Shown one piece after another: positions 36,918 through 43,749 of a stretch of DNA of 56,900 nucleotides. Every line of letters starts with the position of its first letter. Positions within the stretch are counted from its first letter, which is position 1. Source of the stretch: Prorocentrum cordatum (lineage: Eukaryota); NCBI GenBank assembly GCA_963575745.1, contig CAUYUJ010000056.1, positions 62,001 to 118,900 of the forward strand, written 5' to 3'. The position numbers and the translations under genes were made by a program. The notes under the pieces are model-generated. The model was not told the origin of the DNA. It did not search any database and worked only from the letters and a program-made list of their open reading frames with translations.

Positions 36918-37388
36918 CATCGCGACGCTCAACCAGGCCAGGACATTTTGTGTCTCGGGCCAGGCAGGTCGAGCAGGACAGGACGGGCCACGCTCCAAGC
37001 TCGGCGGAGGGGAGGGGGGCGAACGAACGGCACGACGCACACGGCACAAGCACACACCACAACACAACACCACACCGAACGAAAGAGGAAGAGAGAAAAG
37101 AAGGGAGGCAGCGGGCGGGTCCGAAAAAGGCTTGGGCCGGGGCGGTGGCAGATGCAAGCACCGCGCGGCCCTCCCACGCTCTGCGATTACTCTTCTAGAA
37201 CTCCCCATCGCGACGCTCAACCAGGCCAGGACATTCTGTGTGTCTCAGGCCAGGCAGGTCGAGCAGGACAGGACGGGCCACGCTCCAAACTCGGCGGAGG
37301 GGAGGGGGGCGAACGAACGGCACGACGCACACGGCACAAGCACACACCACAACACAACACCACACCGAACGAGAGAGGAAGAGAGAAA
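36918..37388 (-). repeat. 3' split direct repeat block B1-A2-B2
   Basis: Two ~180-bp B copies (catcgcgacgctcaaccagg...gaggaagagagaaa) enclose the ~88-bp A copy (tccgaaaaaggcttggg...ctagaactcc). Confidence 0.95.
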
Positions 37389-37417
37389 CCCAAGTCACCC
37401 CGAATGGGATTCTGGCA

Positions 37418-38227
37418 TTAGCCGCAACTAACTATTTGTCGGAGTCGGCTCAACTTAAGTGACTGGATTGCCTGCTCCAACGCCCGGGCAAACAGGAAAC
37501 AAAAACGACCAGGGTAAGGTTCAGCAGCACTGGTCCAGAGTTTGCCCGAGTTTGGGTCACGGCCAGAAAAGATGATGTGGCGTTTGCCTGTAAAACTGCA
37601 CTGGCCCGAACGCCCGCGACAGGGCCCTGGGAGGGAAATCCGACAACTTGAACTCCAGACCTGAACGCGGGTGCGCTTCCGCCGGCGGGCTCCGAGGGCG
37701 CAAAAATCCACAACACACTGATGGCTATCTGGCCGCCTTGAAAGGCGGGCAAGCTGAGCAGTTTGCCAAATATAACTGCTACTGGGATTCTCCAAAGCCA
37801 CTGGAACATGGTTGCTACGGCAGGCACGAATCAAGGATAGACAGAACTTGAGCTGATAATTGCCCTTCTCACAGGCTAAGCGAGCACGCTGACTGAGGTT
37901 AGGTAAACCCCACAAATGAGAAGGGCTTCTGAGACGGCACCAACTACTGTTTGGGGGCCCATGCCTAGCCTGGGACCAGGAGCAGCAAGGAGTCCCCATC
38001 CAGAGACCGACGACGACGCCCCCCGTAATCCACCCCCGCACCATCTTCTGAATGCAAAGCCTATCCAGATTGAACCAGGTGGGCTTTAAAATGTCGACCG
38101 ACACGACCCCAAAACCGAGGTTTCGCATCGCCTTGGAAACGCCCCCCTGGCCAAAGTAAAGTTCCAGAAAAACTTGCTTCCTAGAGGCCCGAGCAGAGGC
38201 AAGCGCCTTTCTCAGCACTCGCCGCAT
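37418..38227 (-). CDS. C5-cytosine DNA methyltransferase-like protein (~269 aa, frame open)
   Basis: Motif I FLELYFGQGG, catalytic motif IV GTPCCSWS, motif VI LENP, motif VIII RKRT, C-terminal AEPYP; ATG at 38227 overlaps the end of the YR frame. Confidence 0.85.
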   Translation of the reverse strand: MRRVLRKALASARASRKQVFLELYFGQGGVSKAMRNLGFGVVSVDILKPTWFNLDRLCIQKMVRGWITGGVVVGLWMGTPCCSWSQARHGPPNSSWCRLRSPSHLWGLPNLSQRARLACEKGNYQLKFCLSLIRACRSNHVPVALENPSSSYIWQTAQLARLSRRPDSHQCVVDFCALGARRRKRTRVQVWSSSCRISLPGPCRGRSGQCSFTGKRHIIFSGRDPNSGKLWTSAAEPYPGRFCFLFARALEQAIQSLKLSRLRQIVSCG

Positions 38228-41660: not shown

Positions 41661-43076
41661 TTAGCCACCGTCAGCCCCCTTCGGCCCCTTGGGCCCCTTG
41701 GGCTTGGCAAGCTGTCTCTCCTCCCGCGCTTTGCGCCTCTCCTTGGCGACCGCGCTCTCTCTTGCAATCTGCTCGCTGATCCAAGTGGAGAGCGCTGGGG
41801 CCACCATGGGCCCTCGGGTAGTGGCCATCCCCGTGAAGTAGTACTCCTCGTCCTGGTGCTCATTGGTGTCCTTCCTCGTTCCCAGGACTCGATCTCCGTG
41901 CCTTTCTTCACAGAGTTGAAGTTGGCGAGATACCAAATCGAGGCAGGCCAAATTTGCGAGGTCCAACTGGTCGTAGCACAGCGCCGTCTCGAAGAACTTC
42001 GAGTACTCATGATGAGCCGAAACGATAGCGTCGTCGAGACCCAAGCGCATGATCGACCTCCACTGCACATGATGCCCCAATGCGCTCCCTCCGTTCTCGA
42101 GCATGAAGTTGGCCACCCAGTGTGCTGTCCTCGGGCCTGGCACCGCCCAGTCGCCCCAGTCCACGGACCGTAGCAGAGCCACTCCCGAAGCGAACGCGCG
42201 ATGCCGCTTCCCGTTGACATCGCACAGCACTGAGAGGGTGCGGCAGTCACCTGAGCCCGACCCGCCGTCTCCAGCCCCATCCGCGGCGACCGCCAGCGGT
42301 CCTCCTCCGGCTCCGGCCAGTGCAGCTGCGAGCCCAGCGGCGCCGTCGGCGACCGCGGCTGCGGGCGCGTCGGCGGCTCCAGCCGCGGGGGCCCCTCCAG
42401 CTGCGGGCGCAGGCATGGGGGCGAGCATACCTCCCGCCGGGGCTCCTGCGGCGGCGCCGCCTCCAAGCACCCCGGCAGCCGCTGGGGCGGGTCCCGCCCC
42501 GAGAGCGCCAACGCCGCCTCCTCCTGCAGCCCCGCCCGCCGCGGCGCCCCCGCCTCCTCCGAGCAGAGCGGCCAGCCCGCCGGCAGGTCCTCCTGCCACA
42601 GCGAGTCCGCCGCCGCCAGCTGCGGGCGCGGGAGCACCCGCTGCGCCTCCACCAGCCGCCCCGCCGCCTCCGGCGGCGACCAGCGCCCCGCCACCGCCAC
42701 CTGCACGACGTGCCGCAGCGACAGCGAGAGCAGCATCGTGGCCAGCAAGAAGCACCCCGGCCTGCTGCGTGAAGGCCTGTACTGGCTCCGCGTGCGTGAG
42801 CGGGACGGCGAAGTCGTAGACCCTGAGCCCAGCTACGCCCGCGGCTGGGATGATGTCCCCGTCCTCTCGGATAAGAACACGCCCTGGTCCAACTTTGTAC
42901 CAATGTCGGATGTCGTCATTGTCCTCGCTGAACAGCTCAATGAACAAGTCATGATCAGGAGAAACGACTGCAGCATGCAGCCCCTCGATCCCAGAGACGC
43001 CGACCACGACGCGGGCGTGCAGGAGCGGAGCCCCTGGCAAATCATACTCAACATACAGTTCATCTCCGATGTTCAT
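41661..43076 (-). CDS. Gag-like ORF of the YR retrotransposon (471 aa, open)
   Basis: Upstream of RT; globular N-terminus, G/A/P linker, C-terminal WAVPGPRT...YDQLDLANLACLDLVSRQLQ...KERRKAREER. Confidence 0.7.
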   Translation of the reverse strand: MNIGDELYVEYDLPGAPLLHARVVVGVSGIEGLHAAVVSPDHDLFIELFSEDNDDIRHWYKVGPGRVLIREDGDIIPAAGVAGLRVYDFAVPLTHAEPVQAFTQQAGVLLAGHDAALAVAAARRAGGGGGALVAAGGGGAAGGGAAGAPAPAAGGGGLAVAGGPAGGLAALLGGGGGAAAGGAAGGGGVGALGAGPAPAAAGVLGGGAAAGAPAGGMLAPMPAPAAGGAPAAGAADAPAAAVADGAAGLAAALAGAGGGPLAVAADGAGDGGSGSGDCRTLSVLCDVNGKRHRAFASGVALLRSVDWGDWAVPGPRTAHWVANFMLENGGSALGHHVQWRSIMRLGLDDAIVSAHHEYSKFFETALCYDQLDLANLACLDLVSRQLQLCEERHGDRVLGTRKDTNEHQDEEYYFTGMATTRGPMVAPALSTWISEQIARESAVAKERRKAREERQLAKPKGPKGPKGADGG

Positions 43077-43702
43077 GCCTTAGCTCCAGGCGGAGTCCAG
43101 TCACCGACGATATTGCCGCGCCCTCCTGGCACCCTGCGACCCGACACGCCGACCAGTGGAGCCACCTCGCTGCACGCCTCGACCGCCAGAAGCACCTCGC
43201 GCTTCCGGCCGCACCAGCGGCCCAGCTGGCCGCGCACGGCGGCCCAAAGCCTGGTGGCGAGCTCCCACAGCAGGAGGGTCCCCAAGCCTAAGGAGACCTC
43301 GAAGCCCCAAGAGAACTCCGCCTTGGCCGGCTCGGGGCATGCCGGGCAAGGATCAGGGCACTCCACCAGCGGTGCCGACGCCCCCCGGGCACGCACCTCT
43401 CCAGCTCCGCGCACAGCTCTCCAGCCAGCGCGGGGGTCGGCGGCGCGGCCGCCGGGCAGCTCCGCGCTGGCGGAGCTGGGGCCGGCGCCGCAGCCGGCGG
43501 AAGAGCGGCCGCAGGCCGCGCGGCGGGCGGGCTGGCGGGGCCGCGGCCGGCCCACCACTGCCCCAGCCACGCGGAGCCCACGTAGAACGCCAGGAGCACC
43601 GCGCCGCGGCCCGCCTGGCGCATTCAGGTCGCGGGCTGCCTGCGGGCGGCGCGCGACCTCTCCGAAAAAGGCTTGGGCCGGGGCGGTGGCAGATGCAAGC
43701 AC
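43073..43702 (-). CDS. Possible small upstream ORF with one hydrophobic segment
   Basis: Stop overlaps the gag ATG (ATGA at 43076-43073); FEVSLGLGTLLLWELATRLW segment; could be a GC-rich artefact. Confidence 0.3.
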   Translation of the reverse strand: MLASATAPAQAFFGEVARRPQAARDLNAPGGPRRGAPGVLRGLRVAGAVVGRPRPRQPARRAACGRSSAGCGAGPSSASAELPGGRAADPRAGWRAVRGAGEVRARGASAPLVECPDPCPACPEPAKAEFSWGFEVSLGLGTLLLWELATRLWAAVRGQLGRWCGRKREVLLAVEACSEVAPLVGVSGRRVPGGRGNIVGDWTPPGAKA

Positions 43703-43749
43703 CGCGCAGCCCTCCCACGCTCTGCGATTACTGTTCTAGAACTCCTCAT
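43661..43749 (-). repeat. 5' terminal repeat A1
   Basis: Matches 37120-37208 with 3 substitutions. Confidence 0.95.

Follow-up and report, generated by a model that had tools for sequence, protein, structure and literature searches.

Split direct repeats, arranged as A1 ... B1-A2-B2, are the plan of the PAT-like, Ngaro and VIPER retrotransposons (PMC6681497; PMC3266345), and PAT-like families are known in chlorophytes (PMC3266345; PMC6681497). In the classical DIRS1 and PAT elements pol ends in a Dam-like adenine methylase (PMC3266345; bioRxiv 10.64898/2026.05.21.726589). A DIRS element carrying a cytosine DNA methyltransferase (DNMT) has been described from the Symbiodiniaceae as SymbioDIRS-Dnmt3 (de Mendoza et al., 2018; PMC5890265); its authors propose methylation of the cDNA, and de novo CG methylation in yeast has been demonstrated for retrotransposon DNMTs (PMC5890265). 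Here we describe an element of 6.8 kb on the minus strand, from 43750 to 36918, of a 56,900-nucleotide (nt) stretch of contig CAUYUJ010000056.1 (positions 62,001 to 118,900; hereafter the window, to which all coordinates refer). We interpret it as a decayed insertion of a multicopy DIRS-order retrotransposon with PAT-like repeats and a C5-methyltransferase-like domain at the end of pol, and regard this interpretation, taken whole and with the mechanism proposed below, as probable. An earlier reading of the same DNA, made from its letters only (the sequence-only reading), had likewise proposed a split-direct-repeat tyrosine-recombinase retrotransposon, which the present analysis supports, and had pointed to cytosine-DNMT retrotransposons from the Symbiodiniaceae, which is what PMC5890265 describes.

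Comparison of 36918-43750 with the whole window by blastn, together with a repeat search, gave exactly two repeat pairs. The A pair aligns 37120-37209 with 43661-43750 over 90 nt (96.7% identity, E 5e-37), while the B pair aligns 36918-37098 with 37206-37388 in a 183-nt alignment (96.7% identity, E 1e-82). Along the minus strand the order is thus A1 (43661-43750), with which the element begins at its 5' end, an internal region of about 6.3 kb, B1 (37206-37388), A2 (37120-37209), a 21-nt spacer (37099-37119) and B2 (36918-37098), which is the split direct repeat arrangement of PAT-like elements and bears out the two resolved ends of the sequence-only reading. B1 begins 29 nt past the pol stop codon and overlaps A2 by 4 nt, the B1-A2 junction reading GCGATG/GGGAGTTC; the spacer is without counterpart beside A1 or B1. 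As both pairs are about 3.3% divergent, the insertion is not young. The element splits a (TCA)n microsatellite, the halves of which lie at 36082-36894 and 43746-44099 (Tandem Repeats Finder), and a minus-strand (GAT)n tract ending in GATG precedes A1. The same GATG stands at the ends of B1 and B2, a position that fits recombination at short homology without target duplication but proves nothing, because in a microsatellite such homology is indistinguishable from chance. Observed over expected CpG comes to 0.93 in the whole element and to 0.73 in its methylase segment, no strong sign of methylation-driven decay. By blastn and by a family-profile search, the family is represented nowhere else in the window, whether as a full copy or as a fragment.

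At the 60-70% GC of the window an open frame is weak evidence of a gene, and the coding plan was read from relatives instead. Pfam gave no match at E<=0.1 for eight open reading frames (ORFs) of the element and, at E<=10 for six of them, DUF3440 at 0.29 only; in particular the models DNA_methylase, Phage_integrase and RVT_1, to which the sequence-only reading had looked for confirmation, match no ORF of the window copy. When the last 272 residues were scored against 1.84 billion cluster representatives, 3263 relatives of the methylase domain passed E<=1e-3; of these, 1390 remained at E<=1e-10 and 132 at E<=1e-30. Among the best 150 of the 3263, 113 are of at most 350 amino acids (aa), 20 of 351-1000 aa and 17 longer than 1000 aa. 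All 17 long proteins carry the domain at their extreme C-terminus, 34-42% identical to that of the window, and relatives of the element thus possess it as well. Fifteen of the 17 align as reverse transcriptase (RT), RNase H, linker and methylase. In a tblastn search of the 17 against the window (with results for 8 of the 17 among the matches listed) RT, RNase H and methylase map onto the element in that order; the linker, at about residues 750-1115 of the relatives, finds no match in the window, and the alignment of the 15 yields no consensus for it. Two short metagenome loci found with the methylase protein, L001 and L002, are closer, at about 60% identity to the window.

Together these comparisons point to a family plan of ORF1, a pol made up of RT, RNase H, linker and methylase, and, across the linker in a second frame, a recombinase; intact relatives are predicted to encode the gag-like ORF1, a pol with a C5-methyltransferase-like domain of about 260 residues, and the recombinase in another frame. 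In the window copy ORF1 (43076-41664, minus strand, 471 aa) starts at the ATG at 43076, stops at the TAA at 41663-41661, has an Ala/Gly-rich middle and no Pfam match, and is gag-like by position only; a conserved counterpart of its N-terminus lies at the end of locus L002. The untranslated 5' leader between A1 and this ATG (43077-43660) is, at a GC of 0.765 (76.5%), the part of the element with the highest GC. Pol extends on the same strand from the ATG at 41572 to 37421, as a single ORF in the relatives and broken here. A profile built from the first 800 residues of the 15 polyproteins longer than 1000 aa follows it at 41572-41168 (profile residues 6-145), in a different frame at 41178-40627 (142-327), and then at 40627-40316 (331-432) and 40312-39446 (434-728); the methyltransferase domain follows at 38227-37421, closed by a TAA at 37420-37418. 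The order gag, RT, RNase H, recombinase, DNMT in overlapping frames that had been read from the sequence could thus be mapped, with gag placed by position. The minus-strand orientation, the nesting of the recombinase ORF in an alternative frame of pol, the lack of Pfam matches and the damage outside the methylase domain had escaped that reading.

The RT core lies at 41180-40496, with motifs A to C at 40791-40496: GGISNAFY (40791-40768), with Gly at the place of the motif A Asp of the family, LPMGWSWA (40650-40627) and CADNF (40510-40496), where the family has YVDN. The family profile of pol finds, at E 4.9e-5, the RT of a group II intron, with weak matches to retroviral and Ty3 RTs; RVT_1 is found in 4 of 14 relatives (E 3.7e-6 to 5e-3), always below the Pfam cut-off. 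The RNase H-like region (40048-39500) keeps ASDAS, LEG and NPAD, and its family invariants are D561, E665, D692 and D741. These D/E/D/D columns and the RT motifs A to C are invariant in the 15 polyproteins, as expected of RT and RNase H in the DIRS order. Motif C of the family is YVDN and not YxDD, D407 being invariant and N408 present in at least 90% of the 15.

Over the pol linker, in an alternative frame, lies the putative tyrosine-recombinase ORF (39300-38215, minus strand, 362 aa), with five relatives at E 2e-127 to 2e-32. Its family motifs are AYLRPGE, PTKVG..DES, YGLRHGGAS and GRWRS..LKRY, the last two reading YGLRRGGGS and GRWHS..LKRH in the window copy. Compared with L002, the window shows about 62% identity in the recombinase frame and about 41% when the same DNA is read as the pol-frame linker. 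In its nearest protein-language-model (Atlas) clusters PF00589 is found on about 30% of the members in 20 of 30, and Foldseek, given a model with a mean predicted local distance difference test (pLDDT) of 57, ranks Cre, XerD, an integron integrase and lambda Int first, at E 0.2-3. An ATG at 38227, 13 nt ahead of the recombinase stop codon, was not taken as a real start because it is not conserved in L002, where the pol frame is open into the methylase with no ATG ahead of it. L002 also shows, at 1-2267, the end of the recombinase, the methylase, a B-like and an A-like repeat leading straight into the start of ORF1; such an order would arise at the junction of a circle, in a tandem arrangement, or if the assembler had read across the A repeat.

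The sequence-only reading had described an open DNMT frame with PC, ENP and RxR motifs ending about 30 bp before B1. The frame says little by itself, because the copy is non-functional and the DNA 66% GC; the motifs were nevertheless located on the minus strand, as motif I FLELYFGQGG (38170-38141), motif IV GTPCCSWS (37996-37973), motif VI ALENPSSS with ENP in place of ENV (37798-37775) and motif VIII GARRRKRTRV with RKR (37693-37664), followed by a Cys/His cluster (37621-37577). An alignment of 57 family members gives the consensus FLELFxGxG, GTPCxSWS, LENP, WRKRTR and AxPYP, which contains the C5 motif set I, IV, VI and VIII; C84, E149, P151 and C179 are invariant in all 57, and C206, C213 and H220 are present in at least 90%. 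The (D/N)PP(Y/F) motif is absent from the domain. The family profile matches insect DNMT2 (4h0n) at E 4.2e-4, with motif I on motif I and PC on PC, and M.HaeIII at E 0.094, and by hhalign E. coli Dcm is reached at E 5e-5 (probability 67%) with motifs I and IV aligned. An AlphaFold2 model computed with the family alignment as input has a pLDDT of 95.2 and a predicted TM-score (pTM) of 0.91. Foldseek returns 94 matches to this model in the PDB at E<=0.001 (best E 3.6e-5), and the matches listed are C5 methyltransferases only, including DNMT2, DNMT1, DNMT3A/B, M.HhaI, M.HaeIII, DIM2 and MET1. The VIA fold search, which is independent of Foldseek, has C5 methyltransferases in all of its top 12 rows (Z 10.1-11.6, 186-221 residues aligned), M.HhaI among them at Z 11.6 with a root mean square deviation of 4.8 over 213 residues. 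The nearest Atlas cluster is named automatically as a cytosine-5 methyltransferase family with a score of 0.98, and has no common Pfam family. Motifs, profile matches and fold thus uphold the C5-methyltransferase identity given to this last domain; by sequence and model it appears to be a genuine but very divergent member of the fold with its catalytic motifs kept, and activity is predicted.

Between motif VIII and the C-terminal helix there are about 45 residues, in which the canonical GNxVP is not seen and AxPYP stands instead. A short Cys/His module (C179, C206, C213, H220), which could bind zinc, thus appears to occupy the place of the target-recognition domain of other C5 enzymes. The absence of a full target-recognition domain lends some support to a different interpretation, namely that the fold is used not for DNA methylation but for the modification of RNA (the transcript of the element, or tRNA) as in DNMT2, or as a nucleic-acid-binding module only. 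DNMT2 is both the best sequence match and the first Foldseek row, and RNA methylation has been raised for a LINE-borne DNMT that failed on DNA in yeast (PMC5890265). Catalysis is argued for by the positions of the catalytic Cys, Glu and Arg, which are invariant or nearly so in the 57 sequences. The DNA enzymes M.HhaI, MET1, DIM2 and DNMT3A/B moreover score as well as DNMT2, the DNMT families being tied in both fold searches, and CG methylation in yeast was obtained with a DIRS-borne Dnmt3 (PMC5890265). We therefore consider a role without DNA methylation unlikely, and retain a C5 methyltransferase acting on DNA as the preferred assignment.

The window copy itself is, by its lesions, a dead relic, broken throughout save for the methylase domain. 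In addition to the changes in RT motifs A (Gly for Asp) and C (CADN for YVDN), RT has two frame changes, near 41178-41168 and near 40627, and pol is interrupted by in-frame TGA codons at both 40315-40313 and 38779-38777. RNase H has lost its third Asp by a four-residue deletion (39658-39617), and the recombinase has LRRGGGS for LRHGGAS and, with the loss of the presumed catalytic Tyr, LKRH for LKRY. The methylase motifs are intact except for an Arg in place of the conserved Trp before RKRTR. Reading TGA as a sense codon was considered and rejected, as the relatives have ordinary sense codons at these places and TGA serves as the stop codon of the recombinase ORF; the first pol TGA is taken as a transition because most relatives have Trp there (consensus RxWRLR). 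One contig of run X1 has 19 letters inserted behind 38765 and one missing at 38779.

A number of results weigh against our interpretation. No pol can be produced from the window copy, which therefore gives no evidence of activity. Purifying selection on the methylase domain, a point in favour, is indicated in a sister family by the comparison of L001 with L002 (non-synonymous divergence dN 0.014, synonymous divergence dS 0.111, 253 codons), but the ratio comes from this single pair and from outside the family of the window. The recombinase assignment is weak, being based on motifs and faint signals: Phage_integrase reaches just 0.14, in one of seven recombinase sequences; the recombinase profile retrieves nothing meaningful from the PDB; hhalign against lambda Int gives a probability of 1%; and the AlphaFold2 model is poor (pLDDT 56.6), with no Foldseek match at E<=0.001 and Cre best at E 0.21. 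For the methylase, the Foldseek TM-scores are just about 0.4, and in the VIA search short-chain Rossmann dehydrogenases come next at Z 9-10 with about 160 residues aligned; with dehydrogenases from Z 10.0 down, the fold margin is modest. The methylase ORF retrieves nothing from the PDB by phmmer, and its best profile match, DNMT2, is a tRNA methylase. PF00145 does not match the window copy at E<=10 or any of 14 relatives at E<=0.01; in the set of 57 it appears at E<=10 in eight (best 0.011), all short of the gathering cut-off, and the adenine-methylase models PF02086 and PF01555 are touched weakly in five and three of the 57 respectively.

This invisibility to Pfam bears directly on whether the element belongs to the published SymbioDIRS-Dnmt3 lineage, its domain being the same Dnmt3-derived DNMT diverged beyond Pfam and only the host being new. 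Both share the DIRS order, the repeat plan of A, coding region and B-A-B, a C5 DNMT placed in the pol ORF together with RT, and a separate ORF for the recombinase, putative in our family (PMC5890265); the RT of SymbioDIRS-Dnmt3 is also divergent, with a poor Pfam fit (PMC5890265), and relatives of our family are present in a dinoflagellate, Prorocentrum cordatum. SymbioDIRS-Dnmt3 was, however, found by means of PF00145, groups with Dnmt3, and had its RNase_H and Phage_integrase domains named from Pfam matches (PMC5890265). In our family PF00145 fails at E<=0.01 in the window copy and the 14 relatives alike, RNase_H is absent from the same 14, and Phage_integrase is as faint as stated above. 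The family profile, which matches DNMT2 and M.HaeIII, recovers no DNMT3 chain from the PDB up to E 10. The nearest named relatives also differ, being in Pyramimonas, a prasinophyte green alga, and in Prorocentrum. On these grounds, with SymbioDIRS-Dnmt3 set apart by its description and not by its sequence, identity with that lineage seems improbable to us, and a separate family carrying its own divergent C5-type domain is preferred.

The methylase segment is poorer in GC (0.559 against 0.656-0.682 in the other coding parts) and at third codon positions (GC3 0.584 against 0.68-0.83), which confirms the dip noted in the sequence-only reading and could be taken as the mark of a recent, copy-specific capture of a host gene. 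Separate capture by this element, with which that reading had held the dip consistent, does not stand. The same C-terminal place is occupied in the 17 long polyproteins at the identities given above, as well as in L001 and L002 and in a Prorocentrum protein, and GC in the other coding parts may be raised because these serve two frames in places. With the same architecture found in relatives of only about 40% identity, any capture must be ancient; we reject a recent one as very improbable and regard the domain as a long-standing part of the family.

Recombinase relatives were found in Pyramimonas sp. (EukProt), as fragments 79-93% identical, and in Prorocentrum cordatum (NCBI), at 30-35% identity; in one Prorocentrum protein the recombinase is joined with the first part of the methylase domain, and in two others RT is joined with the recombinase. 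From one sequencing run 479 short contigs map on the element, covering 30 of 30 bins at 88-100% identity: 59 at >=99%, 154 at 95-99%, 200 at 90-95% and 66 below 90%. At least one sequenced organism thus carries the family in multiple copies. The element would accordingly be one member of a large family in marine protists that, as these searches suggest, goes undetected by standard methylase profiles.

The replication route, the substrate of the methylase, its benefit to the element and any effect on host silencing are inferred. In the proposed route the RNA would be copied into a cDNA with a B-A junction like the internal B1-A2, and the recombinase would insert this cDNA, without target-site duplication, at short homology, here GATG in (GAT)n. 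By analogy with the proposal for SymbioDIRS-Dnmt3 and the yeast result, the methylase domain, as the C-terminus of pol, may methylate cytosines of the element's own cDNA, an idea that the sequence-only reading had also put forward for the cDNA circle.

Outside the element, the flanks are rich in simple and tandem repeats, with (CTC)n at 35694-36046 (Tandem Repeats Finder), a CAGCCT-based array of 6/22/155-nt units over about 1.25 kb (44449-45721) and a 73-nt unit repeated 6.7 times (45720-46209). A separate RT frame of 885 aa lies on the minus strand at 21773-24427 (RVT_1 E 7e-8); its nearest PDB entries are LINE-1 ORF2 RTs (E 1e-5), and it does not match the DIRS-type family profile and is unrelated. 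Minus-strand frames from 24514 to 27816 run on in one frame, interrupted by single stops only.

Parasites rarely bring along part of the silencing machinery of their host, as a retrotransposon with its own DNA methyltransferase does. The published cases were found by scanning with a Pfam DNMT model (PMC5890265; PMC9998398), and later surveys, as far as their accessible text goes, screen with PF00145 or list only transposon-borne DNMTs of the PF00145 type (PMC9998398; PMC12344493; bioRxiv 10.64898/2026.05.21.726589). The present family is invisible to that model and yet has thousands of relatives, and a survey of this design would have missed such enzymes. We give about an even chance to the broader view that a very large unrecognised clade of minimal C5 methyltransferases, with the Cys/His module in place of a target-recognition domain, has replaced the Dam-like enzyme in a PAT-like lineage and spread over distant marine protists, at least a prasinophyte and a dinoflagellate. 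If true, transposon-borne cytosine methylation in plankton would be much commoner than is now counted and, if the enzyme is active, DNMT counts and explanations of 5-methylcytosine in marine algae and dinoflagellates must include this family. A cytosine-type enzyme exactly where DIRS and PAT elements have an adenine-type one suggests that a methylase at the end of pol is what has been selected, and not the particular modified base. The window copy, a dead relic, is of no importance by itself. In the literature covered, with Repbase and most subscription journals outside its scope, we found no DIRS or PAT element described as having a C5 methylase that PF00145 misses, and nothing on such elements in Pyramimonas or Prorocentrum. 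DIRS elements with a DNMT have already been published (PMC5890265), and what appears to be new here is the family of Pfam-invisible C5-type domains.

Beyond SymbioDIRS-Dnmt3, several retrotransposons are known to carry a cytosine methyltransferase, namely SymbioLINE-Dnmt, Gypsy-Dnmt3 of Klebsormidium and the EpiLTRs of Cymbomonas and Euglena, and Cymbomonas is a prasinophyte like Pyramimonas, the closest named host of our family. These are, however, LINE or long terminal repeat elements with an integrase or endonuclease, while our family has a putative tyrosine recombinase, and their DNMTs are of the PF00145 type, belonging to an orphan clade, to Dnmt3 or to a sister group of DNMT4 (bioRxiv 10.64898/2026.05.21.726589). 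With the DIRS1-like elements the family shares a long overlap of pol and recombinase, in which protein conservation is confined to one frame while the other is just kept open (PMC3266345). The repeats differ, those of DIRS1-like elements being inverted and terminal, accompanied by internal complementary regions, instead of split and direct. Ngaro elements, as described in the accessible part of PMC3266345, have no methyltransferase and usually no overlap of ORFs, unlike the family described here with its methyltransferase-like domain and long overlap. The greatest likeness is to the PAT-like superfamily (PAT, Kangaroo and TOC3; PMC3266345; PMC6681497), which has split repeats, a gag-like ORF1, a pol of RT, RNase H and methyltransferase, a recombinase (putative in our family), and an overlap of pol with the recombinase. 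The family departs from it in the YVDN of RT motif C and in having a C5-type domain, with PC and ENP, where PAT-like elements have the Dam-like adenine methylase. Within the DIRS order it is best filed, as far as sequence comparison can place it, as a PAT-like lineage whose pol ends in a divergent C5-methyltransferase-like domain.

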